This document shows, one piece after another, positions 28,190 through 63,797 of a DNA stretch of 64,000 bases. The notes under the pieces were generated by a model. That model worked only from the letters and a program-made list of their open reading frames with translations. It searched no databases and was not told the DNA's origin. How positions within the stretch are numbered: the first letter of the stretch is position 1; each line of letters opens with the position of its first letter. The DNA comes from a virus (lineage: Duplodnaviria; Caudoviricetes). Location: IMG/VR virus record IMGVR_UViG_2901201504_000001, positions 32,001-96,000 of that record; one strand, written 5' to 3'. Made by a program: the position numbers and the translations under genes.

Positions 28190-28257
28190 AAATTAATTAA
28201 CGTAAAACATAAATACTTAGAAGGTTATAAAAAGCCTTCTAAGTAGCTAATAAAAGA

Positions 28258-28761
28258 GTGTTTTTATTTGATGAATTGGAGGTAAATAGTATGTTCAGAA
28301 TCCCATGTAGTAAATGTAATGGTAAAGGAATCATCCCTCATTTTAGCCATGTTGATGAAGGATTATGCTTTCAATGTAGCGGATCAATGTTCCAGGAAGT
28401 TAATGAAGAAGAATACCAAGATTATTTGAAACATATTGAAAGAATAAAACAAGGTAGCTATATTTTATTCAATAACGGAAAAGTGGAATATTATTCAACA
28501 GTAAGCGAAATTAACAAGAAATATGGAAACTTCTATTGTGGTAACTATGCGGAGCGTTCAATGCATGTTGCATATAGAGACAAAGACATTGTTTATACAA
28601 AAAATAAAGGATTTAAGAGTAAGGAAGTTAATAAAATTAAAAACTGGTGTTTAACAGAGCGTCTTGGAAAGCTTAAACAAATGTTAGAAAAGGAAAATGA
28701 TATTGATTTTAGAGGTATCATTATTAGTAAAATACAGGAATACGAACAACTTTTATGCTAA
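28258..28761 (+). CDS. Zn-finger hypothetical protein
   Basis: CSKCNGKG...CFQCSG. Confidence 0.6.
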   Translation: MFLFDELEVNSMFRIPCSKCNGKGIIPHFSHVDEGLCFQCSGSMFQEVNEEEYQDYLKHIERIKQGSYILFNNGKVEYYSTVSEINKKYGNFYCGNYAERSMHVAYRDKDIVYTKNKGFKSKEVNKIKNWCLTERLGKLKQMLEKENDIDFRGIIISKIQEYEQLLC

Positions 28762-29019
28762 TTGTTTTTAAAGAGTAATGAAATGGAGGTTTTAACAATG
28801 AATTATGCTTTAAGAAACAAAATAATTAAAGAAAATAAATTTTATTCATTGCTAGAAAGTAATAAACAATACAGATTACAAGAATATTGCATGAAAACAA
28901 AAAAAGTTGTAGTAGGAATTATTCAAGGTGATCCAGAAAAATATAATACAGGCACAGGGAAGCTCACTTTTAAATATTTTGATACATGGGAAAACGCTTA
29001 TACTCAACTATCACAATAA
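28762..29019 (+). CDS. Hypothetical protein (start probably at 28798)
   Basis: RBS GGAGG before ATG at 28798. Confidence 0.5.
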   Translation: MFLKSNEMEVLTMNYALRNKIIKENKFYSLLESNKQYRLQEYCMKTKKVVVGIIQGDPEKYNTGTGKLTFKYFDTWENAYTQLSQ

Positions 29020-29052
29020 AAAATTTAATTTTAATCGAAAGTAAGGATATTG

Positions 29053-29169
29053 ATGCAATTAGATAAGTATTGCCTGGAATGTGGCGAATCTCAAGAAATG
29101 AATGCAAAGGAATGTTTCTACTGCGAATCTGAAGAGCTGGATACAATGGATATAGATGATATTGTTTAA
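29053..29169 (+). CDS. 38-aa Zn-ribbon microprotein
   Basis: CLEC...CFYC; RBS AAGGA. Confidence 0.45.
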   Translation: MQLDKYCLECGESQEMNAKECFYCESEELDTMDIDDIV

Positions 29170-29300
29170 GCAACCTATCAAGGTTGTTTTTTATTGCTTA
29201 AAGTTCGAATATTATTTAATTCCCTATGTTTTCTTGTAATATAAATAGATACCAGTACATACCATTACATATTGGCAAGATTATAATAGGGGGAATGAAA

Positions 29301-29750
29301 ATGTCTAAACAGTTTCAGTTAACGCGTCAAATGTTATTGAATTTTGTACAAGATCTAAATGAAGAAGTAAGTCAAGTTCAACCGGAAGGATTCAACAATA
29401 ATATTCGTTGGCACATCGGTCATTTACTTGTAACATCTGAGAGCTTTATGTTTGGCTATCCAAAGAAATCAACAAATATTCCAGTGGAATATGCTTCTTT
29501 ATTTAATATGGGAACAAATCCTGCTGCATGGGAAGGTGAAGTACCTTCTATACAAGAGTTATCTAAATGTTTAAAAGAACAAGCTAAGCGTATTAATGCC
29601 ATTCCCGAAGATTTTTTTGAACAAAAGTTACCGTTTAAATTCCCTTTAGATGGTATTGAGAAATATTCAGATCTTTATGCTTTAATGCTGCATCATGAAT
29701 CAGAGCATTTAGGGCAAATGAAGGCAATGAAAAGAGCGATACAATTCTAA
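29301..29750 (+). CDS. DinB-family protein
   Basis: NNIRWHIGHL and HHESEHLGQM His motifs. Confidence 0.8.
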   Translation: MSKQFQLTRQMLLNFVQDLNEEVSQVQPEGFNNNIRWHIGHLLVTSESFMFGYPKKSTNIPVEYASLFNMGTNPAAWEGEVPSIQELSKCLKEQAKRINAIPEDFFEQKLPFKFPLDGIEKYSDLYALMLHHESEHLGQMKAMKRAIQF

Positions 29751-29911
29751 AATAATGATAGAAAGTATTAATGAAGCCTCACTTTGAACGGGGCTTCTTT
29801 TGTTTTGTCTAATAAAACAGTTCTTTTATTTAAATGATTGAAGACTCTAATTACATAAACAATGACATCAATGTTGGCTTTTTTTCATACAATATCTTTG
29901 GGGTGAGAAAA

Positions 29912-30352
29912 ATGCCAAGAGTTAAATATACAGAATCTGACGTAGATTTAATGGCAAGGTTAATGAGGGCAGAAGCCGAGGGTGAAGGTCAACAAGGGAT
30001 GTTATATGTTGGTAATGTAGTGGTTAATCGTGCTGTAGCGGATTGTTTAGACTTTAAGGAAGTAAGAACGATCGAACAAGTCGTTTATCAAGTACAAGGA
30101 GGTAATTATTCTTTTGAAGCTGTTCAAAAAGGAAATCAATTTTACCAAAGGGCAAGGTCTCAAGAAAAAAGGTTAGCAAGACAGAATTTGGAGTTTTGGA
30201 GAGACCATCCAGCGAAATTTGCCCTTTGGTATTTTAATCCATATGCTCCTTGTCCTCCAACATGGTACGACCAACCTTTTAGCGGCCAATTTAAAAACCA
30301 TTGTTTTTATGAACCACAAGCTAACACATGTGAAAGTGTTTATTCCGGTTAG
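29912..30352 (+). CDS. cwlJ: Spore cortex-lytic enzyme, CwlJ-like (Hydrolase_2)
   Basis: DVDLMARLMRAEAEGEG..GMLYVGNV..NR, FYQRAR, PAKFALWYF, HCFY; upstream CATACAAT -10 box at 29886. Confidence 0.85.
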   Translation: MPRVKYTESDVDLMARLMRAEAEGEGQQGMLYVGNVVVNRAVADCLDFKEVRTIEQVVYQVQGGNYSFEAVQKGNQFYQRARSQEKRLARQNLEFWRDHPAKFALWYFNPYAPCPPTWYDQPFSGQFKNHCFYEPQANTCESVYSG

Positions 30353-31319: not shown

Positions 31320-31446
31320 ATAATTTTTTCTAATTTATAATAACATGAATGTTTATAATATTTACTCATACTCATAATAAAACAGATATTTTATTATTTT
31401 TGATCAATTGACTAGCTGAAAATGCTAGTTTTTTCTTTGTATTTTA

Positions 31447-31538
31447 TAATAAATAAAAGTTAAATAAACTAATATAAATATATTGTTTTATATTTATATA
31501 GATGGTATAATTTAGTTAATAAATAAAAGTTAAATAAA
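31447..31538 (+). promoter_or_regulatory. SigA promoter flanked by a perfect 22-bp direct repeat (repressor operator)
   Basis: TAATAAATAAAAGTTAAATAAA at 31447 and 31517; TTGTTT(31483)-N17-TATAAT(31506) with extended TG. Confidence 0.7.
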
Positions 31539-35105: not shown

Positions 35106-35485
35106 CAGAACTTGAAATTTATTGCTGAGTTATATGGAGTATTTAAAAATAAATTAATTCAAAAATAAATATTCCGTATAACAACAAACTTTTTTTCGAG
35201 CATGGACTTTTTAAAGAAATAAATTCATGGACTATAGAAACCTTAATTTTCTATATAACAGCTAGTCATTTTTAGAGCTGGCTCAATTTGAAGGGATGTG
35301 AAAAAGGAATGGAGAGAATAAAATGCTTATTTTATGATAACATCTACGTTATTTCATTTTTCGTTATGTTAGTCGTATTTAATATCATGATTATTTTTTC
35401 ACTAACAAAGTAATACATTTCATAAGGAAATCAACTAATAAAAATTCTCATATTTTTCTAAAATTGTGTTATGATAGTATAAGTT

Positions 35486-38302: not shown

Positions 38303-38532
38303 AATTAAGGATTTTAAGAAACATGTACTTAGATATTACGGAAATTGGATAACGGATGAAGAAATACAAATATCTCTAGAGATTGCAATATGCATTTTTG
38401 AAGGTGAACAAATTTTTGTAGTGGATGCTCCATTATGTATACATGCAACTGCTTATTTAGATGAACATCTGATACAATATTATTAGTTGGAAATAAACGA
38501 ATAAAACAAGTCTTTTATTTGGAGGTAATAAA

Positions 38533-39473: not shown

Positions 39474-39656
39474 ATGGTGGGAGTTTCTATGTTAACTAAA
39501 GTTATGACTGAAGAAGAAATGCAACAATATGCCAATGAAAAAGAGGGTTATGAGGTTGAGTTTTTACCAGAGTATGCATTGAAATTAGGATATGAAGCAA
39601 CATTAGAAGAAGATTCAATTGGTGAAGAATACTATATTTTTAACAAGATAAAATAA
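39474..39656 (+). CDS. Hypothetical acidic protein
   Basis: 60-aa ORF. Confidence 0.4.
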   Translation: MVGVSMLTKVMTEEEMQQYANEKEGYEVEFLPEYALKLGYEATLEEDSIGEEYYIFNKIK

Positions 39657-39780
39657 CTATTTCATAAGTAGTTCATAAATAAAATCACCTTAAATATTTT
39701 CTTAAAATTATCACTTGAAATTTTATATCAAATAGTTTGAAATATATGTAGAATGTTTGTTTGTATAATTATGAAAAGAG

Positions 39781-40623
39781 GTGATGTCTTTGTGGAATGC
39801 CAAAATATTTATGGAGAAGTTTAAAAGTTGTTTGGCTTTTTCAGCAACTTTAGGTGGTTTTCTTTTAATATTTTATCCTCCTGGTGATCTTGATACTAAA
39901 CGAGGAATAGCTGCAGTAGTTGCGTTTATTATTGCGAATGTCTTAGCCGCAATAATTTTAGCAAAGCCAAAGAAAAAAATAAGTTTGGATATTTCGAAAA
40001 AGGTCAAGTTAAATATATTTTACGGTGACATATTTGATTCATCGTCAAATATTGTAATTCCCGTAAATGAATACTTTGATACGCTCGTAGACAATGTTCC
40101 TGATACTGTTATTTCAAGCAGAACACTACATGGTAAATTTGTTAAGCTGATTTATGGTGGTAACGTTGCTGAATTAGATGTTGCGATTGAAAATGCATTA
40201 AGCAGTGTTGATTGTAACATTAACCCCACTAGGAAGAAAGGTAAAACTAAAAAGTACAACATCGGTCAAACTATATGCATTAGTAAGGACGGTAAGAAAT
40301 ACAGTCTATTAGCATTTAGTAAGTTCGATGAATACAATAAAGCCTATCTGTCCAAAAAGAACTATCAGTTGGTAATACAAGATTTATTTGACCATCTCCA
40401 TGTTATTTCGCAAGGTGAAGAAGTAAACATGCCATTAATCGGAGCTGGTCAATCTGGAATCAACTTAACCAAGCAAGAACTTTTAGAGTACTTAATCTTC
40501 TCACTAAAAATGTGCGATGATCTTACATTAAGTGGAGGAATTAATATCGTATTGCATGAAAGCTTAAGAAAAGAACTTGATTTAAACAAAATTGAGTTTA
40601 TTTCAAAAAGAGGAGGATTTTAA
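39781..40623 (+). CDS. thsA: Thoeris type II ThsA (2 TM + macro domain)
   Basis: Two N-terminal TMs; GDIF, VIPVNEYFDT, LHGKF, MPLIGAGQSG macro motifs; adjacent to a TIR gene. Confidence 0.85.
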   Translation: MMSLWNAKIFMEKFKSCLAFSATLGGFLLIFYPPGDLDTKRGIAAVVAFIIANVLAAIILAKPKKKISLDISKKVKLNIFYGDIFDSSSNIVIPVNEYFDTLVDNVPDTVISSRTLHGKFVKLIYGGNVAELDVAIENALSSVDCNINPTRKKGKTKKYNIGQTICISKDGKKYSLLAFSKFDEYNKAYLSKKNYQLVIQDLFDHLHVISQGEEVNMPLIGAGQSGINLTKQELLEYLIFSLKMCDDLTLSGGINIVLHESLRKELDLNKIEFISKRGGF

Positions 40624-40624
40624 A

Positions 40625-41179
40625 ATGGCATACAGAAATGGAACATACGTGGCGTTCAATGGGTGTGGTACAACGAATCCAACAGAAAGTGATATGAAAT
40701 ATTATGGATTATTGCAAAAATGGAATAAAGAATACGGGGCAGATTTAAATTTCAGCGATAGTCACGATAAAACATACAGTGTACGAGATTCTAGTAAAAC
40801 AGAAACATTGAAACGAAGATTGCTTGAAAGGTTGAAGAATTCAAAACATATAGTACTTATCGTTACTGAAAATTCAAGTTGGAATCGAGGTCTTCTTAAT
40901 TGGGAAATTGAAAAAGCGGTTGAGCAATATAAAATCCCATTGATTGTTGCACATACTACTTGTTCTGGATTTATATCGAGCCCTAAGCAATTAGCCCATT
41001 TGTTACCAGAGGAATTTAAGAACCAAGTGGCTAAAGGAAATATTAAAGCTATCCACGTTCCGTTTAGGAAAAGAGCAATTGGCGCAGCAATTCGTCAATT
41101 TGGTATCAATAATCAAATTCCAGATACAGCTTTTGACTATTATATTCAAAAAGCATATATTGATTGGGATTACAGATAA
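40625..41179 (+). CDS. thsB: Thoeris ThsB TIR-domain protein
   Basis: MAYRNGTYVAF, SVRDSS, LKRRLLERLKNSK, NWEIEKA (catalytic Glu), IPLI. Confidence 0.88.
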   Translation: MAYRNGTYVAFNGCGTTNPTESDMKYYGLLQKWNKEYGADLNFSDSHDKTYSVRDSSKTETLKRRLLERLKNSKHIVLIVTENSSWNRGLLNWEIEKAVEQYKIPLIVAHTTCSGFISSPKQLAHLLPEEFKNQVAKGNIKAIHVPFRKRAIGAAIRQFGINNQIPDTAFDYYIQKAYIDWDYR

Positions 41180-41286
41180 AAGATTGCTTTTATAATAGAG
41201 ATTACATTAAATATAGAGCGAGTTATTACAACAAGACATGCTTCATCGCTCTTAGTTATTACATTACGAAACTAGGAGGGATTTTC

Positions 41287-41836: not shown

Positions 41837-43000
41837 ATGTGCTTATTGAAAAAAATACTAAACAAAAGAGCATCTGATGACGATACTCTCATTAAAAATT
41901 TAGCCAAGGAAATAGGGTATTCAGATACTCCAATAAGAAATTTTAAAAACAAACCAGAAAAAGAGCTTGATAGTTTTGAATCGTTAGTAAAAATGGTTAG
42001 ATATTTAGAACCTGATAGAGAAATTGAAATTATGATTGATTACTCAAACCATTTAAGATTAAATTTCAATACTGCTCGATATATGCTAGATTATCTATCT
42101 GTAAATAGACAACTAGATGAGATGAATAGCTTAATTGAAAAGATGAAAGAATCATCAAATAAAGAAAGTGCGCTTTGGGCTAAAGCATATTCATTGTTAT
42201 ATTTATGGCAAACACAATCTTTCAAGTTAGATTTAGACAAGTTTTTGAATGAAGTAAATTATTTAGTTACAAAAAACATACCTTCATTAGAAATTTTACA
42301 AAGATTGTTGAAATGTTATATATATGATCAAAAGCAATATCATAAACAAGTACTAGAGATATCTGAAGAAGTTAAATTCCTTATTGAGAAAGTAGAAGAT
42401 AATTATTTAAAAAGGGTTTATTCAGTTAAAATCAATGAAATTACATCTAATCTTAAATTATGGGTTTACAATGATTTTGATGGAGCACGAGAAGATGCAA
42501 ATAAAGTTATAGAAGCTGATTTAGGAATTGGATTTACAGCTTATGCAAAATATACAATTGCTCAATCATATTTTTATACTTCATATGATAAATCTAGAGA
42601 GTATTTCATTGATTGTATTAGACTGTATGAAACTATGAATAGGAAAGAAGTTGCAGAAGATGTTGTCGGTTCTCTTGAGTTTTTAGAAATATTTTGGGAT
42701 CAGAAAAAGCAAGATAGTAGTTTTATATTAAAAGAGAATGAGCTATATATAAAAGCTAAATTAAACATAGATATTACGGAAGACTTACATAATTTTAATG
42801 ACGAAAATAAACAAGGATTTATATTATTTCTTAAAGGTATAAATGAAAATAATACTGATTTTTTATTTAAGTCTATGATTCAAAATCTTAAAGGGGGTGA
42901 TGCCTTTAGTGCCAACGCAGCTAGACTGGAACTTCAGAATAGAGGTTTCAGTGAAGTAGTATTAAATGAACTAATAAAGATTCACGACAATCAAAAGTAA
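41837..43000 (+). CDS. aimR: Arbitrium receptor AimR (HTH + TPR, RRNPP family)
   Basis: 387 aa; N-terminal HTH (LAKEIGYS...KELDSF), ARYMLDY, helical repeats, C-terminal GDAFSA; followed by a short secreted peptide gene. Confidence 0.85.
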   Translation: MCLLKKILNKRASDDDTLIKNLAKEIGYSDTPIRNFKNKPEKELDSFESLVKMVRYLEPDREIEIMIDYSNHLRLNFNTARYMLDYLSVNRQLDEMNSLIEKMKESSNKESALWAKAYSLLYLWQTQSFKLDLDKFLNEVNYLVTKNIPSLEILQRLLKCYIYDQKQYHKQVLEISEEVKFLIEKVEDNYLKRVYSVKINEITSNLKLWVYNDFDGAREDANKVIEADLGIGFTAYAKYTIAQSYFYTSYDKSREYFIDCIRLYETMNRKEVAEDVVGSLEFLEIFWDQKKQDSSFILKENELYIKAKLNIDITEDLHNFNDENKQGFILFLKGINENNTDFLFKSMIQNLKGGDAFSANAARLELQNRGFSEVVLNELIKIHDNQK

Positions 43001-45379: not shown

Positions 45380-46356
45380 ATAAATTAATAATGTTAGTTG
45401 GTTTACCAGCAAGTGGTAAAAGCACATTAGCGGAAAAATTATCGAAAGAATATGATGCAGAAATCGTCTCTTCAGATGAAATTAGAAAAGAGTTATTTAA
45501 TGATATTAATGATCAAACTAATAATGATACAGTTTTCAATGTAATGCATGAAAGAGTTATTAAACTCCTCAATGCCGACAGAAGTGCTATTTATGATGCA
45601 ACAAACTTAAATAGAAAGCGGAGAAAACACTTAATCAATCATGTATTTAAAGCGGATCAAAAGATTGTTTACTACATTAATGAAAGTATTGGAACTGTGT
45701 TATGTAGAGACAGTGAACGTGAAAGAAATGTAGGAGAGAAAATAATAAGTAAAATGTATAAAAATCTTCATATTCCAGTTGAAGGAGAAGGATGGGATAA
45801 GGTAATTTACGTTAATTACTACAATGATGGGTTGTTGAGATTAAAAAAGCACTATGAAGAAGTTATCACTACTGTACATTCTCATGATGAACTGTTTGGA
45901 TATCTAACTGCATATATTAGTGAGTTCAGTGAAATTCTAAATTTACCACAGGATTCTAGCTATCATTCCTTTTCAGTAAGTAGGCATACATATTATGTAC
46001 ATAACTATATTCTAGAGAACTATCATAATGAAGATAGATTAATTTTATTATGGGCAAGTTTATTTCATGATATTGGAAAATCATATTGTAAATCATTTAC
46101 TAACTTTAAGGGAGAAGAAACAAAATATGCGAATTTCATAGGACATGAATATGTTTCTTCTCAGATAGCAGCAAAACGATTAGGGATGTTAGGATACGAT
46201 GAAAACTTTATTAAAAAAATTGTAACCTTAGTACAATTCCACATGATGCCGATGAGAGCTAGTGAAAAGAAAATGAATGAAATCAATAGGCTAATTGGAG
46301 ATGATTTATATGCTAAGTTAATGATACTTAGTGAAGCAGATACGCAGGCTAAATAA
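45376..46356 (+). CDS. Polynucleotide kinase fused to an HD phosphohydrolase (Pnkp-like RNA end healing)
   Basis: GLPASGKST, SSDEIR, DATN; HD domain HSFSVSRHT, LFHDIGK, GHEYVS, HM, EAD. Confidence 0.85.
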   Translation: MNKLIMLVGLPASGKSTLAEKLSKEYDAEIVSSDEIRKELFNDINDQTNNDTVFNVMHERVIKLLNADRSAIYDATNLNRKRRKHLINHVFKADQKIVYYINESIGTVLCRDSERERNVGEKIISKMYKNLHIPVEGEGWDKVIYVNYYNDGLLRLKKHYEEVITTVHSHDELFGYLTAYISEFSEILNLPQDSSYHSFSVSRHTYYVHNYILENYHNEDRLILLWASLFHDIGKSYCKSFTNFKGEETKYANFIGHEYVSSQIAAKRLGMLGYDENFIKKIVTLVQFHMMPMRASEKKMNEINRLIGDDLYAKLMILSEADTQAK

Positions 46357-46385
46357 AAAGTCGATGTTATTAGGAGGTAGGGAAT

Positions 46386-46520: not shown

Positions 46521-46549
46521 ACACGATTTTATTCTAATTAAGAACGATT

Positions 46550-46759
46550 ATGCGAAGGAATGGTGTGACTATGAGTAGTGAAAGAACGGTGAAAGAATTA
46601 AAAGAGGACATCAAACGAGAAATAGAAGCAACTCGGACTTTAAGAGAAACTGGAAGCGGATTTTACTATGAATATAAAGATTGGCAGTCAAAAAAGGATT
46701 GTGAGAGATTAGAGAAATTATTAAATGAAATTATCTATTTCGAATGGGAGTATTGTTGA
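46550..46759 (+). CDS. Hypothetical protein
   Basis: 69-aa ORF. Confidence 0.4.
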   Translation: MRRNGVTMSSERTVKELKEDIKREIEATRTLRETGSGFYYEYKDWQSKKDCERLEKLLNEIIYFEWEYC

Positions 46760-46825
46760 GTGATTCTGTCATATAGCGTAGAAACTAAATAAAAGAACAA
46801 TTTCATTTTAAGGGTGGGGTGAAAA

Positions 46826-47206: not shown

Positions 47207-47237
47207 ATTAATAAATTTTATAAAGGGAGATAATTGA

Positions 47238-47942: not shown

Positions 47943-47999
47943 TATAAAATACCATTTTCATCGTTCGAAAATAAATTAATACAAAAAGGGAGAGAATGG

Positions 48000-48407: not shown

Positions 48408-48457
48408 TTAGTATATAAAGAGTCGATATTCCACAACATAATTTTAAAAAGGAATTT

Positions 48458-49680: not shown

Positions 49681-49719
49681 TTACATAATAAATGATTTAT
49701 TTTATAAGGAGATGATGTA

Positions 49720-49983: not shown

Positions 49984-50431
49984 TTAAGATTTATAGGGAG
50001 ATGATAAAATATGGAACGAGAAATTCAATGGTTAGTAAGAAAAGAAAACGAGTGCAACTCGAAGATTTGGTGAAGAATAAAATAGTCATATTATTATTTA
50101 ATTAACACTATATACAGTGATTTGTGGTTATATATTTTGAGGGGAGTTGCATAAGTGAAAAGAAATGATTTTGAATCACTTAAAATAAAAGCTAAAAAAA
50201 CGAAACTATAAGAAACTTTTTAGATAATGAAGAAAAACGTGATAATCCATTCTTCAAAGGATATAAAAGTAAACAGTTCTTCAATTTTGAGAAAGGGACT
50301 GATATTAAATAAAAATTAAAGTAGATTTAAAGGTGCTGACATTAGTCGAGGAATACAGTCATGTAACTATTGGATTGTTTTTAGGTGAACGACTAATTAA
50401 TATTGTAGCTGTAAAGGAGTGAATCGTTGAG

Positions 50432-51537: not shown

Positions 51538-51763
51538 TAATTTGATTAAAATAGATGAATTAACTGAGAAAAAGATTTCAAAAGTAATGGATGGGTGGTT
51601 TCATGATATGAAAAGTCATCCTAATCACAAGACAAGGGAATTTGCTGGAGCTTTGTATATGGGAATGTTAAAAACATTAAATATTTTAGACATCAAAGTT
51701 AAAAAGTATAATGAATAAAATGATTCATTTATATTTGAAAAAGCTGGAAAATTCCAGCTTAAT

Positions 51764-52322: not shown

Positions 52323-52437
52323 ATTAAGATAAAAACTCAATTTTATTTAGATTTACTACATTCAATTACATACGACTAATTAATGATTGTTTACTGATAA
52401 TCTAGTAAAATATACCTTATGAAAGGAGGAGCGATAT

Positions 52438-53388
52438 ATGCAAAAAAAATTACAGGTATTTATATCGTCTACATTTACAGACTTAATTGAGGAAAGGCAG
52501 ACTGCTGTAGAAGCGGTACTAAACGCAGGACATATACCAGCTGGAATGGAATTATTTAAATCAGGTGATAAAAGCCAAAAAGAAGTTATTAAAAAATGGA
52601 TTGATGAATCTGATGTATATATGTTGATTTTAGGTGGCAGATATGGGTCGATTGATGAAGAGACAGGTAAGAGTTATACTCACTGGGAGTATGATTATGC
52701 AGGAGAAATAGGTAAACCAAGATTCGCAATCGTAATAACTGATGAAGCTATGGAAGAAAAGGTTAGAGAACATGGTCAAGACGTTTTGGAGAGAATTAAT
52801 TATCAAAAGTACATAGAATTTAAAGAGCAGGTACTTGGAAAGATTTCGAAATTTTATAGTGATCTTAAAGATATTAAAATTGTCGTTTTAGAGTCATTAA
52901 AAGAATTTGAAAAAGATGAAAACTTAAATGGGTGGGTATCTGGAGCGAATATTAATAATCAACAAGAGTTGTTAACATCAAATTTAAGATTATTAGAAGA
53001 GAATGCCTCTCTAAAAAATAAATTAGAAGAAGCTTTGAACAAAATTCAAAAATCAAATGAGATTAATGGTTACTCATATGATGAGATATATAAATATTTG
53101 TCATTCGAAAAGTTGGAATTACCAGAAAAATTATTCCCAGAGTTAGTTGGGAAAAAAGTATCGCTTTTGAAATTATTTCTTGCATTTAAAGATCGATTAG
53201 CAATTGGAATAACTAATGATGTACACATGACTGATGAAAATAATTTTTACTTTTTTAGTGTAGCCCCAACGCTTATTGCTCTGGGATTATACGAAAAGGT
53301 TAAAGTTGCGGGGGTAACCTATCAAAGAATTCAAACTTCAAAAGATGGTAATAAATTTTTATCTTTATACGAATTGTCAAAAAAATAA
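52438..53388 (+). CDS. DUF4062 (TIR/NDT-like) domain protein with coiled coil
   Basis: QVFISSTFTDLIEER, AGMELF, SDVYMLILGGRYGS, SYTHWEYDYA. Confidence 0.85.
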   Translation: MQKKLQVFISSTFTDLIEERQTAVEAVLNAGHIPAGMELFKSGDKSQKEVIKKWIDESDVYMLILGGRYGSIDEETGKSYTHWEYDYAGEIGKPRFAIVITDEAMEEKVREHGQDVLERINYQKYIEFKEQVLGKISKFYSDLKDIKIVVLESLKEFEKDENLNGWVSGANINNQQELLTSNLRLLEENASLKNKLEEALNKIQKSNEINGYSYDEIYKYLSFEKLELPEKLFPELVGKKVSLLKLFLAFKDRLAIGITNDVHMTDENNFYFFSVAPTLIALGLYEKVKVAGVTYQRIQTSKDGNKFLSLYELSKK

Positions 53389-53412: not shown

Positions 53413-53475
53413 TGTTAATAATGTCATATTTAGTTAATAAAAGTTAGATTTTAAAGTGAAAGGAAAGTTGAATTA

Positions 53476-53982: not shown

Positions 53983-54020
53983 TTTAAAATCATGGTTTTA
54001 ATATAAGGAGATGAGATTTA

Positions 54021-54584
54021 ATGGCTACAATTGAAAATTCATTTAATGGTGTTGAAATTGGAAAATATGATAACAGTAATGATTTAAGTGCAGCTTTAAA
54101 GAAATATGTTGGTAATAATGTTTTCTTTTTCTGCGTTGGAACAGACCGAGCTACAGGTGATTCAATAGCTCCTTTTGTTGGAACATTTTTAAAAGAAAAA
54201 GGTTATACAAATGTTATGGGTACTTTAGAAGATCCTGTTCATGCACAAAATATTGAGGAGAAAATCAAAGAAATACCTGAGGGATTTACAATTTTGGCTA
54301 TTGATGCTTCTATTGGACGAATAAATAATATTGGGAAATTTCTACTGAAAAGCGGTAGTTTAAAAGCTGGAGCAGGGGTAGGGAAAGATTTACCAATGGT
54401 GGGAGACTATCATATTCAAGCTGTAGTAAGCACTGGATCAGGTAATAATAGTTTTAATTTTATGATGTTAGCTAATACGAGAATGAGTTTAATATATGAT
54501 ATGGCAAATAAATTAACAGCAGCAATTGAGTCAGCTTATCCTTTAAGTTATAAATTAATGAATAAAGAAGAAGCTGCTTTATAA
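54021..54584 (+). CDS. yyaC: Spore protease YyaC-like protein
   Basis: CVGTDRATGDS, GTLEDPVHAQN, AIDASIG, GAGVGKDLPMVGD. Confidence 0.85.
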   Translation: MATIENSFNGVEIGKYDNSNDLSAALKKYVGNNVFFFCVGTDRATGDSIAPFVGTFLKEKGYTNVMGTLEDPVHAQNIEEKIKEIPEGFTILAIDASIGRINNIGKFLLKSGSLKAGAGVGKDLPMVGDYHIQAVVSTGSGNNSFNFMMLANTRMSLIYDMANKLTAAIESAYPLSYKLMNKEEAAL

Positions 54585-54622
54585 TGAAATCCTTATTTTA
54601 TTAAGAGTGGAGGAAGCTCATA

Positions 54623-55019: not shown

Positions 55020-55241
55020 TTGATAAATGTCATATTCTATACAGAGAAATGGGGAATAGCAATGAGAAAAAGAGTTGTATATTTACAAGATAATATGATT
55101 AATGATAATGAAATGGTTATTTTTTCGGCAGATATTCCATATGTGACAGAAGGAAATTTAATAGTGAATGAGGATAATTTAGCTATACCAATACATGATA
55201 TTTGGGTAGATTTTAATGTAGTTTATGAGTATAACTTATAA
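55020..55241 (+). CDS. Hypothetical protein
   Basis: 73-aa ORF. Confidence 0.4.
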   Translation: MINVIFYTEKWGIAMRKRVVYLQDNMINDNEMVIFSADIPYVTEGNLIVNEDNLAIPIHDIWVDFNVVYEYNL

Positions 55242-55273
55242 ACGTCTTATTTTATACAGAATGGAGTGAGTTT

Positions 55274-55375: not shown

Positions 55376-55410
55376 GATAAAAGTCGTGATTTATACAATG
55401 AGGTGAAAGA

Positions 55411-55695: not shown

Positions 55696-55729
55696 GATAA
55701 AATTCACGTTTTATAAGAGGAGGGATTTA

Positions 55730-56055: not shown

Positions 56056-56337
56056 AAACAAGATAAAAATTATATTTTATACAAGGTGATTATATGAAAT
56101 GTGCCAGAAGTAGAAACAATGAGATGTATCTGAATGGTACAACAATTATTTGATGAGTTACGTAAGAATTATTTCTCACCCTAAATATACACATGAGCAA
56201 AGAGTTAAATATAATGAAATACTTCTAGCTTGGTATGAGAATTTTAATGGATATTTAGAGGAATATGATTGTTGATAAAAACTAGATTTTATATAAAGGA
56301 GTGATGATATGAGTGAATATAAGTATATTGAATCCAC

Positions 56338-57516: not shown

Positions 57517-57780
57517 ATGAATTTAACAAAGGTACAAAAAAGAATTAATCTATATCAAGAAAACCCAGTATTTCATGAATTAACTTGTGGTAACAATTCA
57601 AAGCATGGGACACTAAAAGCACAAATTATTGGTGACAAAGTAGTTTTGATTTGTCCTGACTGCGAATACATACAGACTTATATACCAGACTTCTTTTTCA
57701 ATGATCAATTTGAGATTGAATATAATAAACAAAAAGAGTTAATGGATAGAATTAACGAGATACAAAATACAATAAAATAA
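57517..57780 (+). CDS. Zn-binding hypothetical protein
   Basis: HELTC..H...CPDC. Confidence 0.5.
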   Translation: MNLTKVQKRINLYQENPVFHELTCGNNSKHGTLKAQIIGDKVVLICPDCEYIQTYIPDFFFNDQFEIEYNKQKELMDRINEIQNTIK

Positions 57781-57859
57781 TACTTTTAAACATCTAATAA
57801 AGTGAGATAAATTGTCTTACTTTATTTTTTTGTTATTTTGAATAAATTGGAAATATCAG

Positions 57860-57936: not shown

Positions 57937-58953
57937 ATGGGAGAAGCAAGAAAGTTAAGGGATCATTATATATATGATGATATTATTGCTTTTTTAAATT
58001 TAGCTCATTATAGTTATAATACAAAATTGTCATATGAAAAAGGAATTAGAGACTTTTTTAGAGAAATTAAAAATAAAGATATTGAGCATCTTACTCAGGA
58101 TGATATCCCCATAATGAAAAAAGAGGTGGAATTATTTAGAACACTGTTGAAAGAACGTGGCTATCATAATAATACAATTAATAATAAAGTAGCAGGATTA
58201 AGAAGACTATATACTGAATTTAAAGCGAATAAATATAATGTTGATGTAGATTTTTTTAGTATTATAAAATCATTACCAAGTGACACAGATTCTTATGATC
58301 CTTTTACTATAGATGAAGCAATGCAATTATATGAGTTAGCTTTAGATGAAAGGCATGATGGTGAGATAAAGTCTAAATTCATTTTGTTTTGCCTGGATAC
58401 TTGTATAAGAAAAAGTGCTGCATTAAAACTAAAATGGTCAGATTTCAAGGTTATAAATGAAAAAGAAGTAAGAATAATTGCTATTGATAAAGGTAATAAA
58501 GACTTTAGAGCGATGATTCATTATGATTTTTATAAAGAATTGTTGGAACTTAAAACTGATTCTGATCTAGTTTTTAATTTGAAACTACCTACTGTAGATA
58601 AAATGATATCTAGATTAGTCACAAAACTAAATGTAGATTCTGAAAGAAACTTAACATTTCACAGTTTAAGAAAAGCAGGAATTGAGTTTAAGTATAGATA
58701 TACTGGTGATATTAAAGTAGCACAAAAAGCAGCTAATCACAGTGATTTTTCGTTAACTTTCAATACTTATGTTAGTACTGAAGATTATGGGGTAATGGGA
58801 GCTGTATCATTGCTACATAAAAATGAAGAATCTATCTTAAACCAATTAAACTTTGAAGAATTAAAAAAACTTATGAATAGCCTAGAGCCAGATGTATTTC
58901 TAAGAGTGGAAAAGATGGCTAGAGAAATGTTCTCGAAGTGTTTGAAAGATTAA
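57937..58953 (+). CDS. Tyrosine recombinase (YopP-like), catalytic residues intact
   Basis: N-terminal SAM-like domain; TCIRK (R), DKGNK (K), FHSLRK (HxxR), NHS (H), NTY (Y). Confidence 0.85.
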   Translation: MGEARKLRDHYIYDDIIAFLNLAHYSYNTKLSYEKGIRDFFREIKNKDIEHLTQDDIPIMKKEVELFRTLLKERGYHNNTINNKVAGLRRLYTEFKANKYNVDVDFFSIIKSLPSDTDSYDPFTIDEAMQLYELALDERHDGEIKSKFILFCLDTCIRKSAALKLKWSDFKVINEKEVRIIAIDKGNKDFRAMIHYDFYKELLELKTDSDLVFNLKLPTVDKMISRLVTKLNVDSERNLTFHSLRKAGIEFKYRYTGDIKVAQKAANHSDFSLTFNTYVSTEDYGVMGAVSLLHKNEESILNQLNFEELKKLMNSLEPDVFLRVEKMAREMFSKCLKD

Positions 58954-59048: not shown

Positions 59049-60389
59049 TTGTATATTGATAGAGAAGAACTTGAAGAGAGATTGACACCTTTCCTTGAAC
59101 AAGTTAGAAACAATAACCATGCAGTGGATTTAATTTCTAAGAAAATGTTAGATTTCAACATCCTTGAAGGAGATACTATAAATTACTTTAATCAACCAGA
59201 AACTATCGCTGACATGGATTTGAGAGCTTTATGTCTTTTTACAATGTTTGTACAAGAACATGTTAGAGATTCATCTTTAGATATAACTGAAATTTTTACT
59301 CCTAATGATATTAAAGAAGCGAAGCAGTATAATGGAGCATTTGAAATTGAAAAAGAAGAAGATATACTTCCTCTAATAATCGAAGGCGCAGATGCTTTAG
59401 ATAGTACTACAATTTTGACTAAGCTAAATATCCAACAAATCAATAAAATGCTGGATAAAGAGATACTGTATTATGATTTTAATACACAGAGAGAAGCTAA
59501 GTGGAAGAGAAAAGGTAGCACGATCATTCAAACTCCAAAAATTAACCAAAAATCAGTTAAGGAAATTTCTAAATGCATATTAGATGACACTTTAGTTAAG
59601 ACAGTCCTAACATTTAATGCGACTATTGGTAGTAGTGATGAAGAAAATGAATTAATATACAACGAGAAGAAAAGAACAGTTACAATTACTAAAGGAACGA
59701 AAATAGCAATTATTGATGGATTCCATAGGGTTAAAGGAATTCAAATGGCATTGGCTAAAAATCCACATAAAGAGTTTGTTTTCCCTGTACTATTAACAAA
59801 TTATTCTGTTGAAAAAGCAGCTCAATATTTAGGGCAAATTTCTAAAGCAAATCCAATTTCTAAGACTCGTGCTGCTGAATTATTAAAATCAAGAAAAGCT
59901 GATGAGGTAGTACAGTATTTAAAAGAGAGTTCAGAGCTAAAAGGAAGAATTTCTCAAACAGAGAGAATACATTCCATTAATAATGAAATAGTCACTTATA
60001 ATATTTTAGCTGATACTATTGAAAAAGAATTCAAACTAAAAACAAGAATAGATGTAATAAAGGTTGGAAAGTATTTAAGCGAATTCTTTGATATTTTAAT
60101 GGGCTTGTACAGCGATGCCTTTATTGATAATGTTGTGGAAACTAAAAATAAATCATTAATTAATGATAACAATATGTTTGTTGGTTATATAGTGCTTGCT
60201 AGAAGATTGTACGAGCAAGATAAGCCTATTGATATAAATGTAATTGAAGGGATAATGTCTAATATAGATTTTAGCTATGACAATCCACTATGGGAAGAGT
60301 TGGCATTAACGAAAGATGGGAAGAAGAATCATCGTACTCATGTAGTAAGAACAAATATAATGAAATATTTCAATCGATTAGAAATATAA
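59049..60389 (+). CDS. YopQ-like DndB/ParB-fold (DGxHR) protein
   Basis: NTQRE, IIDGFHRVKG; located between two integrase-fold genes as in SPbeta. Confidence 0.75.
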   Translation: MYIDREELEERLTPFLEQVRNNNHAVDLISKKMLDFNILEGDTINYFNQPETIADMDLRALCLFTMFVQEHVRDSSLDITEIFTPNDIKEAKQYNGAFEIEKEEDILPLIIEGADALDSTTILTKLNIQQINKMLDKEILYYDFNTQREAKWKRKGSTIIQTPKINQKSVKEISKCILDDTLVKTVLTFNATIGSSDEENELIYNEKKRTVTITKGTKIAIIDGFHRVKGIQMALAKNPHKEFVFPVLLTNYSVEKAAQYLGQISKANPISKTRAAELLKSRKADEVVQYLKESSELKGRISQTERIHSINNEIVTYNILADTIEKEFKLKTRIDVIKVGKYLSEFFDILMGLYSDAFIDNVVETKNKSLINDNNMFVGYIVLARRLYEQDKPIDINVIEGIMSNIDFSYDNPLWEELALTKDGKKNHRTHVVRTNIMKYFNRLEI

Positions 60390-60406: not shown

Positions 60407-61399
60407 ATGAACTTAAGTCATTTTGACTTTTATAATAGAGAATTGAAAGAAAAGTTTTTAGAACAATATAATGAAGAAACTGCAAGAACATATGCGTATA
60501 GTTTAGCTCGTTCAAGATTTGAGGAAGAATTGTTTGGGAAAGATTTATATAATTTTAATTTAGAACAAATCTCTAAGATATTACCTAAATTTAAGGCGTG
60601 CAATCTAAATGGTGTAAAAAAACATGCATTAATTATTGATCTATACATGACATGGGCTGCTGAGAATGGTTATAGAAATAGTAATATAAGTGTTTTAAAA
60701 GGTATGGATAATGAATTCTACGAGCGTTTTGTTATGAACAAGAAGATGTTTATAAATGAAGACGAATTAAAAGAATATGAAGATACGCTTGTGAATTATC
60801 AAGATAAGTTAACTTTGAGATTACCATATGAAGGTTTGACTGGTTACAAAATGTCCTTGATGAGAAATTTAAACATAAAGTGTTTTACTGACAAACCTAA
60901 TGTAATTAGATCAAAAGATGATAGAAAAGGCGAAAGAGAAATTGAAGTTAGTGACAGATGTATTGAATTTATTAAAAAAGGTATTGCAGAGGATATCTAT
61001 TATGCTAAAAACGGTGAATCTGAAGGATATATTAAAGAATTACCATTGACTAGGAATAACTATGTAATAAGAATTAATGCAAAAAAGAATAAGGAAAATT
61101 CAGAAATTGATACACATAACCTTCACAGAAGATTGAAAGCTATTAAAGAAGGTATAGATTTACCTGCAATAACATTTAAATCATTGGAGAGATCAGGAAT
61201 GATTGCGTTTGCAAAAGATTTATTTGTTGAAAGAGGAAAATTAGGAAAAGAAGAGTTCAATATTATTGGTGATCGATATGATTTAAGTAAATTACATGCA
61301 GGAGGAAAAGAGTATCATAATACAACTATGATGAAGACATATATTAACAGGGAAAATATTTTAGAGTTATATGGAATTGACATAGGTGAAAATAATTAA
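60407..61399 (+). CDS. yopR: YopR/MrpR-like master repressor (catalytically degenerate integrase fold)
   Basis: FYNRELKEKFL, FGKDLYNF, LPYEG, FKSLERSGMI without canonical R/HxxR; synteny. Confidence 0.75.
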   Translation: MNLSHFDFYNRELKEKFLEQYNEETARTYAYSLARSRFEEELFGKDLYNFNLEQISKILPKFKACNLNGVKKHALIIDLYMTWAAENGYRNSNISVLKGMDNEFYERFVMNKKMFINEDELKEYEDTLVNYQDKLTLRLPYEGLTGYKMSLMRNLNIKCFTDKPNVIRSKDDRKGEREIEVSDRCIEFIKKGIAEDIYYAKNGESEGYIKELPLTRNNYVIRINAKKNKENSEIDTHNLHRRLKAIKEGIDLPAITFKSLERSGMIAFAKDLFVERGKLGKEEFNIIGDRYDLSKLHAGGKEYHNTTMMKTYINRENILELYGIDIGENN

Positions 61400-61653: not shown

Positions 61654-61863
61654 TTACGGCCATTCATATAAATCATCAATAGTGCAATTCAACGCATTGG
61701 CTATAGTTTTAGCAGTCGCAAGAGACATTGTTCTTCTGTTTCTTACATAGCTATTTATTTCCTGTTTAGTTATACCTGTCATTCTTGATATATCAATTTG
61801 AGTTAGTTGAGATTTTTCGAGAATAGATTCTAATAAGCATTTCCCTACAGTCATTTTAGTCAT
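61654..61863 (-). CDS. XRE HTH protein (YopS-like)
   Basis: VGKCLL...TQIDISRMTGITKQEINSY...MSLATAKTIANALNCTIDDLYEW. Confidence 0.8.
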   Translation of the reverse strand: MTKMTVGKCLLESILEKSQLTQIDISRMTGITKQEINSYVRNRRTMSLATAKTIANALNCTIDDLYEWP

Positions 61864-62056
61864 AAATTACCACCACCTTTTTTACATAATAACATAAAGA
61901 ATATTTCCTTGTAATATATGGTAGGGTATTATGGTTTGTAGTATAATAGAAAAAACAGGAACACTTGTTCGTCATTTTGGTAGTCACAGAACAAAGAAGA
62001 AATATAGATTACTAAAGTTTCAATATACAGGATTACATAACAAAGGAGACCTTTTA

Positions 62057-62293
62057 ATGGGAAATAAAGTATTAATTGACCTTTCATTGTCAGTTGAATT
62101 TACTGGGACAAACGAAGAAGCTGAATTTGTTGTTGAAGCACTAAATGAGATTTTGAATACATATGCTAGTAAATTACCAGTAAATAATAAAGAGAGGTTA
62201 ATTGACATACTATCTTTGGAGATTGATAGTATGGAAGAAGTCGAGGCTGCTGATGATTATGTAGCAGTTACGATCAAAGATATGAATGAGTAA
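62057..62293 (+). CDS. Hypothetical protein
   Basis: RBS AAGGAG before MGNKVLID. Confidence 0.5.
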   Translation: MGNKVLIDLSLSVEFTGTNEEAEFVVEALNEILNTYASKLPVNNKERLIDILSLEIDSMEEVEAADDYVAVTIKDMNE

Positions 62294-62517
62294 AAATAAT
62301 GAAAGTGATTTAAATTGATTTAATAATAGCCCGTTGGGTAGTAAGGAAACTGACGGGTCTATTATTAGAAATTTTTGAAAAATAAGCTTTACAAATGAAT
62401 TAACATAATGTAACATTATAAATGTAGATAAAAAGGTTGTTTAAATCACAAACAAAAGTTAAATAACATAAAATAATAAAAATCACATTTTATTAGAAGT
62501 TAAGGGGAGGGAATAAC

Positions 62518-63063
62518 ATGAAAAACCTAATTAAAAGAGGAGAGATCGAAAGGCTGCAAAAGGAGTTTGCCAATATAAAAAGTACTAACTGGCACGAAAT
62601 TAATGTACCAAGAATGCTTGATACTTTAGAAATACTATTAAAGGAACCTATCAACGTCGATTATGCTGAATTAGCTTTTAAATATGAGAGCTTACTATTC
62701 TTTTATAAACAACAGATTACTGATGTGAAAAGATATAAAAGGCTTTTGTCAGGTTTAATGGAAGATATGGACTTTCAAATTGAAGAAAATGAAAAGATTG
62801 TATTGGCTAGGAGGAGAATTGATATGAAAGACTATTACGTTGAAGTTCCAGTAGTATTGAAATTAATGGTCGGAGTTAAAGCAGAAAATGAAAAGGATGC
62901 AATTGAAAAAGTATTTAATGAAGATATCATGATTAAAGCAGAAGAAGGAGATAACAGTACTCTTGAATGGCTGGAATACGAGTGGGAAATGTACTCAAAA
63001 GTTGTACAAGGAAATGTTTATTATGGTGGTATTAATGAAGCATATGCAGAAGAAGATGAATAA
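62518..63063 (+). CDS. Hypothetical protein, probably two fused genes
   Basis: Internal RBS AGGAG before in-frame ATG at 62824 (MKDYYVEV...). Confidence 0.5.
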   Translation: MKNLIKRGEIERLQKEFANIKSTNWHEINVPRMLDTLEILLKEPINVDYAELAFKYESLLFFYKQQITDVKRYKRLLSGLMEDMDFQIEENEKIVLARRRIDMKDYYVEVPVVLKLMVGVKAENEKDAIEKVFNEDIMIKAEEGDNSTLEWLEYEWEMYSKVVQGNVYYGGINEAYAEEDE

Positions 63064-63065
63064 AA

Positions 63066-63743
63066 GTGGAGGAGATCTTATTGAAAATAGAAAATGAGGT
63101 ATTGCCTGATTTATATTTAGAGACTGTTTATAACTACCTGGAAGAAACCACGAGCAAGATAGAATTCATTTTATCAGGCGGAGTCAGAAATAGGGGAAGG
63201 ACAAAGATGAGAAATAAAAGCAAATTAATAACTAGTAAAGAAATTACAGAAGTGTTGAATTTACTACATAAAGATTATTCTGATCTAGGTATGACAATTT
63301 CTATTTATTCAAAGAAATATCAAGTGCTTCTCGATAGACTGAATCCTTATAAACTATACATAAATAAACATGTTGCTAATCAAGCTATGAATGGAACGAT
63401 TGTAGGTAATCATCGAGAAGGATTAATCTCAGTTTTTCCATTTAACTATAGTGTGAAAGGAGGATCATATGAATCAAAAAATTCTGTGAGGAAACTGATT
63501 GCACTTGGAGTCATTATTCATGAAATTCGACATGCTTATCAAAGGAAACATAAAGTTGAAAAATATACATCAGAAAAATTGAATGGTCATGGTTATGATA
63601 CTCAATGGGTAGAAAGAGACGCTAATAAGTTTACACAACGTTTTATGAATAGATATAGAAACAAAATAAACGAAATTCTTAAAATCAACAATTTAAATTG
63701 GGAATATCAATGGGATAGATTAAGAGTGGATGAGATTAACTAA
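63066..63743 (+). CDS. Zincin-like (HExxH) protein
   Basis: IIHEIRHAYQ and WVERDA. Confidence 0.6.
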   Translation: MEEILLKIENEVLPDLYLETVYNYLEETTSKIEFILSGGVRNRGRTKMRNKSKLITSKEITEVLNLLHKDYSDLGMTISIYSKKYQVLLDRLNPYKLYINKHVANQAMNGTIVGNHREGLISVFPFNYSVKGGSYESKNSVRKLIALGVIIHEIRHAYQRKHKVEKYTSEKLNGHGYDTQWVERDANKFTQRFMNRYRNKINEILKINNLNWEYQWDRLRVDEIN

Positions 63744-63797
63744 TAAAAGTGGAGTTTTATTTTAAAAATAAATTAATAGATAAAAGGGGATTTAGTA

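Follow-up and report, generated by a model that had tools for sequence, protein, structure and literature searches.

The question raised by this locus is what a short inverted repeat, ATAAAA-N6-TTTTAT, does at the gene borders of a large phage. The window, meaning the whole 64,000-nucleotide stretch that was analysed, comprises bases 32001–96000 of the 137,119-bp provirus record IMGVR_UViG_2901201504_000001 (about 30% G+C), which is labelled G000 here; coordinates are window positions unless the provirus is stated. Gene calls behind all junction and intergenic counts were crude and were made for this analysis (83% coding). Judged by its genes, the window has the layout of an SPbeta-like phage of the Bacillus type, with a leftward arm of structural and packaging genes (including a terminase with 79% identity to SPbeta YonF, and a YonO-like RNA polymerase), a rightward arm of numerous small accessory genes, and a lysogeny operon encoding a YopP-like tyrosine recombinase, a YopQ-like DndB-family protein and a YopR-like protein. 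The palindrome is quite probably a DNA site that is bound by protein as a dyad and that marks the borders of modules.

Perfect copies were found 15 times in the window, against a mean of 0.22 and a maximum of 2 in 100 dinucleotide-preserving shuffles, and 31 matches were found when up to one mismatch was allowed, against 4.87 expected and a maximum of 12 in the shuffles. A sequence-only reading of the window had listed at least 14 perfect copies and a dozen or more with one mismatch, around a spacer fixed at 6 bp and variable in sequence, nearly all of them intergenic and often overlapping a stop codon. All 12 of the perfect copies listed in 28250–63760 and those at 8913 and 12910 were recovered, one more was found at 762, and 16 one-mismatch copies were counted, a few of which may be due to chance. 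Over the whole provirus 32 perfect copies were counted, and the backward-read pattern did not occur. When spacings of 0–15 were scanned in the provirus, N6 alone was enriched (32 copies against 0–1 at other spacings), with free centres, and the swapped arrangement TTTTAT-Nk-ATAAAA was not enriched (0–2 copies across spacings). When all 5-Nk-5 palindromes were scanned without bias, TAAAA-N6-TTTTA ranked first in G000 (48 observed, 3.4 expected) and also in SPbeta, in proviruses G003 and G004 and in a Nanhaiella prophage; in the genome labelled G008 it ranked second, after the overlapping ATAAA-N8-TTTAT form.

Placement was equally uneven. In the comparison that had been named beforehand as the refuting test, against a shuffled AT-matched intergenic background, 29 copies were counted in the 24.9 kb of intergenic DNA (73% A+T), where 300 dinucleotide shuffles gave 0.16 on average and never more than 2; 112 kb of coding DNA held just 2 perfect copies. 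With up to one mismatch allowed, 58 of the 63 sites in the provirus were intergenic or touched a gene end only, and the stop-codon overlaps were borne out by open reading frames (ORFs) ending at 41179 (ThsB), 46356 (kinase-HD), 55241 and 63743. The further claim that nearly every gene is bracketed held locally, at 53.4–56.3 kb, and failed overall, a copy being present at 21 of the 55 co-directional junctions in 28–64 kb, the rightward arm. For the provirus, a set of 66 sites was defined as those with up to one mismatch or with the TAAAA-N6-TTTTA core; a start codon with a Shine-Dalgarno sequence was present within 120 nt downstream of 42 of these, and at 14–29 nt in 24 cases.

Mismatches were concentrated at the outermost position (13 of 31), and the core is therefore TAAAA/TTTTA. 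The base after the A-run was seldom A and the base before the T-run seldom T, conservation amounting to six bases per arm with weak preferences at positions −1 and −3. No identical six-base centres were found among the 66 sites of G000, about 1 being expected. No hairpin covariation was detected: the flanks paired at chance (6–14 of 32 per position, about 9 expected), and compensatory pairs were present in just 5 of 93 two-mismatch sites. Invariant arms, a free centre and unpaired flanks point to a DNA site read by protein and not to an RNA fold, fixed arms with a free centre being the signature of two identical protein subunits seated on duplex half-sites.

It is improbable that the palindrome acts at the RNA level, where a short AU hairpin just ahead of the Shine-Dalgarno sequence would adjust translation, coupling or the processing of mRNA. 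The 24 of 66 sites that end 14–29 nt ahead of a start codon are what such a hairpin would predict, as are the copies of phage Tsamsa, which lie between tiny early genes, begin at the stop codon and fill gaps of about 30 nt, ending 14–17 nt ahead of the next start; this short distance, however, follows from fitting 18 bp into a gap of about 30 nt. Both arms are fixed in sequence while the loop is free, host genes make no use of the motif, and some copies have a terminator on one side and a promoter on the other. By nearest-neighbour rules, moreover, a stem of six A-U pairs closing a 6-nt loop is not stable by itself, which counts against a hairpin. Reads on the SPbeta region numbered 210 from ribosome profiling (Ribo-seq) and 0 from two 2026 RNA runs, and gave no usable RNA ends; in an older run the entire stretch was covered by a single contig.

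The distribution of the motif was followed through phages and hosts. Ten IMG/VR relatives found through the terminase held 1–22 perfect copies, against 0–1 of the control; 8 of the 10 held at least 9 (9–22), one held 5, and one, a Paenibacillus prophage, held 1. SPbeta has 13 perfect and 34 core palindromes, at N6 spacing only. For other phages, core motifs were counted against the reversed motif as control, with the following results (core/control): Geobacillus E3 30/7, Perkons 17/2, Tsamsa 23/3, FADO 33/1, Alicyclobacillus KKP_3916 2/1, a Staphylococcus SPbeta-like phage 17/8, Mammaliicoccus phi36 28/1, BcoS-136 23/6, and Lactococcus 949 and phiL47 7/3 each. Unrelated AT-rich phages showed no enrichment (SPO1 0/0, phage K 4/4, A511 0/1, AR9 9/10). 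Clostridium phage c-st (NC_007581) was enriched (31/7), and the motif thus extends beyond the Bacillales. In bacterial genomes the copies lay in prophages: 11 of 13 inside a prophage of about 108 kb in Oceanobacillus, 11 of 12 inside the prophage in Terribacillus, and 21 of 30 in one 150-kb contig stretch in Robertmurraya. Outside the prophage there remained 2 of 13 copies in Oceanobacillus and 1 of 12 in Terribacillus, against 8 and 4 of the reversed control. The palindrome is neither a general property of AT-rich phages nor part of a host regulon; its spread among these genomes shows it to be of long standing in a broad group of large Bacillota siphophages.

These counts also bear on the very improbable alternative that the site serves a host factor, such as the host Xer recombinases or a nucleoid protein, or is purely a structural bend without a specific partner. 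A 6-bp centre is the architecture of dif as well, and phasing of A-tracts and T-tracts bends DNA. Chromosomes outside prophages, however, hold no more copies than the reversed control, no bases are conserved beyond the 6–7-bp arms, and the four unrelated AT-rich phages, from Bacillus, Staphylococcus and Listeria hosts, are without enrichment.

A comparison of mosaic breakpoints needs close relatives, and for G000 none was found by megablast against a phage collection or through its YopR-like protein in IMG/VR. The best IMG/VR match of its terminase had 80% amino-acid identity, in GTDB genomes the best match reached 86% and lay on a contig of 18 kb with a nucleotide identity of about 70%, and in metagenomes the YopR-like protein had no match while the YopQ-like protein matched one fragment at 47% identity. 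The test was therefore run in SPbeta relatives, SPbeta being compared with proviruses G003 and G004, which were aligned over about 65% of length at 80–99% identity. In the whole-genome comparison with G003, the ratio of broken to continuous junctions was 20:5 with a copy and 32:67 without (odds ratio 8.4, p = 2e-5); with G004 it was 16:4 and 28:76 (odds ratio 10.9, p = 1e-5). In accessory regions only, the ratios were 18:2 and 28:42 for G003 (odds ratio 13.5, p = 8e-5) and 15:2 and 23:52 for G004 (odds ratio 17.0, p = 2e-5); junction numbers in the structural arm were too small for this comparison. Intergenic ends of homology blocks fell in site windows in 12 of 56 cases for G003 and 8 of 58 for G004, against 1.8 expected (p = 1.6e-7 and 5e-4). 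Alignment of related SPbeta-like genomes had been proposed as a check on the crossover idea, and homology did break at the motif beyond chance. Among natural isolates, homology stops with the final base of the 116,414–116,431 copy in 7 of the 23 records matching SPbeta 115.9–116.9 kb, and further breaks were seen at this copy and at the next, 117,534.

The centres were retained in order. Of the 34 SPbeta core sites, 27 shared their six-base centre colinearly with G003 and 24 with G004, against 0.66 and 0.56 expected. Both 100-bp flanks were at least 75% identical at 8 of these sites in each comparison, and one flank was at 9 (G003) and 7 (G004). At 10 sites (G003) and 9 sites (G004) neither flank reached 75%, some of these flanks being perhaps very diverged homologues; unrelated 100-mers gave 57% identity at the 95th percentile. 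Between G000 and other genomes, centres were shared at chance level (0–3, against 0.1–1.2 expected), as is to be expected at about 70% nucleotide identity.

The mechanism proposed from these data is as follows. Two inverted half-sites would be read by two subunits of a dimeric phage protein, the six central bases being left free. The site would lie at the upstream edge of a module, past a stop codon or terminator and ahead of the next ribosome-binding site (RBS) or promoter. Each copy would have its own centre, and related phages would keep the order of centres while the genes between are replaced, the copies being the joints where modules are exchanged. Chemically, the most likely event would be a crossover at a core site of the tyrosine-recombinase type, with an overlap region of 6 bp; matching centres would be required for it, keeping the exchange in register. 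Candidate enzymes are the YomM-like recombinase of the tail operon and the YopP/SroD-like recombinase in the window. To this full reading, in which the copies are crossover joints of a tyrosine recombinase needing matching centres, a probability of about 0.45 was assigned; that a protein binds, which one it is and that strands are exchanged at all are steps that we infer.

An unbiased intersection of the proteins common to G000, SPbeta, G008, the Nanhaiella prophage and FADO left only three DNA-binding candidates, all of integrase fold, namely the YomM-like, YopP-like and YopR-like proteins, and the first two match the general Phage_integrase family (Pfam). Candidates were also compared with a panel of four motif-rich phages (E3, Perkons, Tsamsa and FADO) and the motif-poor KKP_3916. 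YopP-like matches were present in all five, KKP_3916 included; a YomM-like protein was present in all four motif-rich phages and was not found in KKP_3916. Rejected as binders were the YopS-like helix-turn-helix protein (no match in any of the five panel phages), the HU-like and SroE-like proteins (in the panel, only in E3 and Perkons) and YonO (only in Perkons). The YomM-like gene of G000 (provirus 25570–26583, minus strand, Pfam Phage_integrase) lies 5.4 kb left of the window. Its product is unusually conserved, with 65% identity to YomM of SPbeta, 81% to its counterpart in the Nanhaiella prophage and 77% to that in Perkons. YomM-like proteins were found in 94 phage records, and the gene was immediately upstream of that for the tape measure in each of the six annotated records inspected (Staphylococcus, Mammaliicoccus, Lactococcus 949 of a virulent group, phiL47, BcoS-136 and FADO). 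The catalytic set is R, K, H, K/R, H/W, Y.

Several points weigh against crossover by a recombinase. Each arm has just 5–7 conserved bases, short by comparison with the 11–13-bp arms of recombinase sites, and a 5-N6-5 dyad is equally typical of helix-turn-helix dimers. Breakpoints can coincide with the motif even where no dedicated enzyme acts: it may be the sole sequence common to otherwise unrelated junctions, and selection may keep each motif-plus-gene unit whole. Colinear centres fit simple inheritance with microhomology as well as exchange between identical overlaps. Other breakpoints are at places free of the motif, a recurrent one being at the edge of a unit of promoter and SPBRE (the repeated element discussed below); centres and arms drift by single substitutions; the two proviruses compared, G003 and G004, are themselves relatives, and gene calling was crude. 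The correlation between YomM and the motif is weak evidence, being imperfect and confounded by shared ancestry. The Staphylococcus SPbeta-like phage (17/8), Lactococcus 949 and phiL47 have the YomM-like gene with about two-fold enrichment, the genome labelled G006 has a 28%-identical YomM-like copy and only about 5 sites, and c-st is enriched yet has only a weak Xer-like match, which is not beside a tape-measure gene. The second catalytic arginine of YomM is a lysine in the SPbeta clade (arginine elsewhere). Laboratory hybrids of phi3Ts and SPbeta are described in the available text of the Dragos et al. preprint as joined at ordinary homology at 15 of 16 sites, with one non-homologous joint "following yosA". 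In the Hyb2 and Hyb3 laboratory hybrids the sequence is that of SPbeta throughout 115.9–118.3 kb.

The strongest competing account, still somewhat unlikely, is that the palindrome is an operator or roadblock for a conserved dimeric regulator other than YopR, acting like a stoperator or insulator that would silence or partition transcription at gene junctions; its presence at mosaic joints would be a by-product of its being the only conserved sequence there, as in the classic linker model of modular phage evolution. Dyads in which a 6-bp centre is left free are typical of dimeric operators, copies lie between stop codon and RBS or between terminator and promoter, and each genome has dozens of them, a number reminiscent of stoperators. 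SroD is reportedly an auxiliary repressor, and SroE and SroF are said to bind many sites. A second repressor with an unclear role, SroE, is indicated in the accessible part of 10.1101/2025.11.27.690993. Against this account, no small regulator was found to be conserved: the YopS-like protein was in 0 of 5 phages, the HU-like and SroE-like proteins in 2 of the 4 motif-rich ones, and none of the three is held in common with FADO. Nor does this account by itself explain identical centres amid replaced flanks, and some copies lie past a terminator and ahead of a promoter, a place with nothing to block (e.g. SPbeta 99,497).

The integrase-fold repressor of the window was itself considered. MrpR (YopR, SroF) of SPbeta binds the element SPBRE at about ten promoters, according to the text available of Kohm et al. 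2023 (PMC10516654). SPBRE was rederived here from the upstream regions of ten promoters named from chromatin affinity precipitation sequencing (ChAP-seq); the rederived element is asymmetric, spans −35 to −10 of sigma-A-type promoters and is unrelated to the palindrome. In phi3T, as far as 10.1101/2025.11.27.690993 was available, SroF is a monomer on a 26-bp box, of which it reads 24 bp, and the box differs from the SPbeta element. That the palindrome is the operator of the YopR/MrpR/SroF-like repressor of G000, equivalent to SPBRE, is extremely improbable. A homologue is encoded in the window and MrpR does bind a repeated element at about ten SPbeta sites, but that element is a different, asymmetric, promoter-overlapping sequence, SroF reads a long box as a monomer, and SPbeta has its 13 perfect palindromes besides its SPBRE. 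The same palindrome occurs in phages whose YopR-like proteins are less than 60% identical to that of G000, and 24 of the 66 copies abut an RBS, leaving no room for a promoter, unlike the SPBRE/SroF operator. A separate asymmetric repeat near promoter-like sequences of G000 is a better candidate for the operator. The identification of the palindrome with SPBRE was rejected, the rederived element having a different sequence that already contradicts it; by sequence and symmetry the palindrome is a second repeat, separate from SPBRE. The suggestion, made in the sequence-only reading, of stoperator-like sites is not supported for this integrase-fold repressor: YopR/MrpR/SroF operators are long, asymmetric, monomer-bound and different in SPbeta and phi3T, whereas the palindrome is constant across phages with these diverged YopR-like proteins.

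The better candidate just mentioned is an asymmetric AT-rich repeat of about 20–24 bases around the 12-mer AAAGTTAAATAA, found mostly just upstream of sigma-A-like −35/−10 pairs; it is a candidate operator of the YopR/MrpR-like repressor of G000 and would be its SPBRE equivalent. A role of the palindrome as promoter of YonO was also rejected, as YonO starts at a single site upstream of yonK (Forrest et al. 2017, in the part available) and YonO is absent in 4 of 5 phages tested. In SPbeta c2 (AF020713, 110,881–111,100), a copy of the repeated element (110,912) and a palindrome (111,028) lie inside the annotated yorM start, despite a ChAP-seq peak reported for the yorM promoter in the accessible text of PMC10516654; the annotated start is probably too far upstream.

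Known systems were compared with the palindrome. The stoperators of Cluster A mycobacteriophages are short intergenic sites, tens of them across the genome; they are asymmetric, follow the direction of transcription and differ with the immunity repressor. The palindrome likewise numbers tens of sites in small gaps, but it is symmetric and the same across phages with different repressors; neither an asymmetric, oriented site nor a repressor-specific sequence was found, the arms being shared by SPbeta, E3, Perkons, Tsamsa, FADO and phi36. The elements SPBRE and Phi3TRE are alike in belonging to the same phage family, in being repeated and in having an integrase-fold protein at many sites; they differ in being 15–26 bp long, asymmetric, promoter-overlapping, monomer-bound and phage-specific, and SPbeta has both SPBRE and the palindrome. 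In the PeSL cassettes of T4-type phages, a repeated intergenic promoter and stem-loop flank small accessory genes in plastic regions, for which modular shuffling through homology has been proposed. The palindrome, by contrast, has no stable stem and no sigma-70-type hexamer pair, hexamers 6 bp apart being unable to serve as −35 and −10. The pdif/dif modules of Acinetobacter plasmids are mobile accessory-gene modules bounded by short Xer-type sites, which are used by host XerC/XerD and have asymmetric C and D arms in alternating orientation, while the palindrome is symmetric, is absent from host chromosomes and bounds modules in fixed order.

Closest in architecture are the core sites of tyrosine recombinases (Xer/dif, lox, FRT), which have inverted arms around a centre of 6–8 bp, here 6 bp; tyrosine recombinases are encoded by the phage. 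As with heterospecific spacers of lox and FRT, exchange would apparently be restricted to copies with the same centre. The palindrome differs in its 5–7 conserved bases per arm and in its dozens of differently addressed copies. It belongs with the boundary or junction sequences of mosaic phages and has the architecture of a recombinase core site.

The other of the two readings offered from the sequence alone was that of crossover sites for single-gene cassettes in an integron-like system. The crossover sites are supported indirectly and in relatives only, as breakpoints and block ends there fall at the motif and centres are kept; the integron is not. A true integron-like system, with attC-type sites folded as single strands, an IntI-type integrase and an expression array, hardly deserves consideration. 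Small accessory genes do point the same way and are separated by a repeat, and a tyrosine recombinase is encoded close by. Sites of the attC type, however, are imperfect palindromes of 57–141 bp that fold as single strands with extrahelical bases, and the element here is an 18-bp perfect dyad without extended imperfect pairing. The 32 perfect copies are scattered over both transcription arms of the 137-kb provirus, the structural operon included, there is no single attI/Pc platform, and many modules carry their own promoter-like or terminator-like sequences. The integron was rejected on site structure and on the lack of a single array.

A published description of the palindrome was not found in a search that left aside Lazarevic et al. 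1999 and Brady et al. 2023, and the word "palindrom" is absent from the Kohm 2021 preprint and from Forrest 2017. How phage genomes become mosaics jointed at gene borders is an old open question, to which two answers stand: illegitimate joining at random followed by selection, and linker sequences that are conserved. The palindrome accounts for a measurable share of the joints in the SPbeta group, namely the intergenic block ends counted above, and it is a single, sharply defined site that a wide range of large Bacillota phages have in common and for which a few candidate enzymes can be named. Both binding and crossover can be tested directly, because SPbeta in Bacillus subtilis 168 is open to genetic manipulation. 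A stronger form of the crossover reading, which we regard as doubtful, is a programmed, "addressed" exchange of cassettes, in which a YomM-like or YopP/SroD-like enzyme would cross TAAAA-N6-TTTTA copies of the same centre only; co-infecting phages and resident prophages would then swap defence, anti-defence and sporulation genes module by module with gene order kept. If the palindrome were instead an operator, it would represent a second genome-wide layer of control in SPbeta-like phages beside MrpR/SroF. The copies of the window and the other features discussed are collected in table 1.

Table 1. Palindrome copies, candidate proteins and other repeats (window positions unless the provirus is stated; core-only, TAAAA-N6-TTTTA).
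Feature	Position	Strand	Remarks
Perfect copy	762..779		inside late-region ORF 600-1007, minus strand; same centre at matching place in 5 related loci
Perfect copy	8913..8930		between terminator-like hairpin and RBS of gene upstream of terminase, minus strand
Perfect copy	12910..12927		upstream of HU-like gene, minus strand
Perfect copy	28250..28267		ends 23 nt ahead of next start codon
Perfect copy	29812..29829		4 nt past terminator-like hairpin and T-run
Perfect copy	31377..31394		intergenic
Perfect copy	35318..35335		intergenic, past DUF4942/Dam-like gene
Perfect copy	38501..38518		ends 14 nt ahead of next start codon
Perfect copy	41176..41193		overlaps ThsB stop codon
Perfect copy	52329..52346		upstream of DUF4062 gene
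Perfect copy	55697..55714		ends 15 nt ahead of next start codon
Perfect copy	56063..56080		RBS directly after
Perfect copy	56275..56292		ends 16 nt ahead of next start codon
Perfect copy	62476..62493		ends 24 nt ahead of next start codon; asymmetric repeat directly before
Perfect copy	63743..63760		abuts stop codon of ORF 63066-63743
One-mismatch copy	2566..2583		intergenic, late region
One-mismatch copy	11039..11056		22 nt ahead of minus-strand start codon
One-mismatch copy	31474..31491		
One-mismatch copy	39648..39665		overlaps gene end
One-mismatch copy	42849..42866		inside AimR-like gene; may be chance
One-mismatch copy	46353..46370		overlaps kinase-HD stop codon
One-mismatch copy	46789..46806		19 nt ahead of RNase H-like gene
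One-mismatch copy	47944..47961		
One-mismatch copy	49688..49705		14 nt ahead of next start codon
One-mismatch copy	50077..50094		
One-mismatch copy	51715..51732		overlaps gene end
Core-only copy	52874..52889		inside DUF4062 gene; may be chance
One-mismatch copy	53437..53454		21 nt ahead of YpsA-like gene
Core-only copy	53984..54001		19 nt ahead of DUF1256 gene
One-mismatch copy	54584..54601		abuts stop codon
One-mismatch copy	55238..55255		overlaps stop codon
One-mismatch copy	55377..55394		16 nt ahead of next start codon
One-mismatch copy	57772..57789		overlaps gene end upstream of YopP-like gene
YonN-like HU-family protein	12433..12774	-	considered as binder; in 2 of 4 motif-rich phages
YopP/SroD-like tyrosine recombinase	57937..58953	+	Pfam Phage_integrase; R-K-H-R-H-Y full in translation; candidate binder
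YopQ/SroE-like DndB-family protein	59049..60389	+	no homologue found in motif-rich Tsamsa, FADO
YopR/MrpR/SroF-like integrase-fold repressor	60407..61399	+	matches solved MrpR/YopR structures (PDB 9rd5 E 3.6e-43, 8a0a E 2e-35); not the likely binder
YopS-like Cro/C1 helix-turn-helix protein	61654..61863	-	considered as binder; no match in 5 other phages
AAAGTTAAATAA repeat	15760, 16030	-	
AAAGTTAAATAA repeat	25348, 27618, 27794, 31456, 31526, 62455	+	
AAAGTTAAATAA repeat	provirus 109882, 126464		
AAATAAATTAA(T), examples	25867, 35147, 47969, 53972, 61466, 63765	+	
AAATAAATTAA(T), examples	2583, 3156, 9394	-	

Window modules bounded by copies include a Thoeris system, an RNA-repair set and sporulation-type genes, whose spread the site may shape. 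The Thoeris-like pair (39781–41179) consists of a Macro-domain ThsA and the TIR protein ThsB, and is flanked by the one-mismatch copy at 39648 and the perfect copy at 41176. The RNA/DNA repair cluster (44462–49312) encodes a T4-type RNA ligase, a kinase plus HD phosphatase (Pnkp-like), an RNase H-like protein, an RlaP-like nucleotidyltransferase and an ATP-dependent DNA ligase, and looks like counter-defence against tRNA/RNA nicking. A strand-specific word, AAATAAATTAA(T), occurs 19 times in the provirus, in every case in the direction of local transcription, usually just upstream of an RBS and sometimes directly after a palindrome copy. An AimR-family arbitrium receptor is encoded at 41837–43000 (Pfam AimR, E 1e-41; 26% identity to SPbeta AimR).

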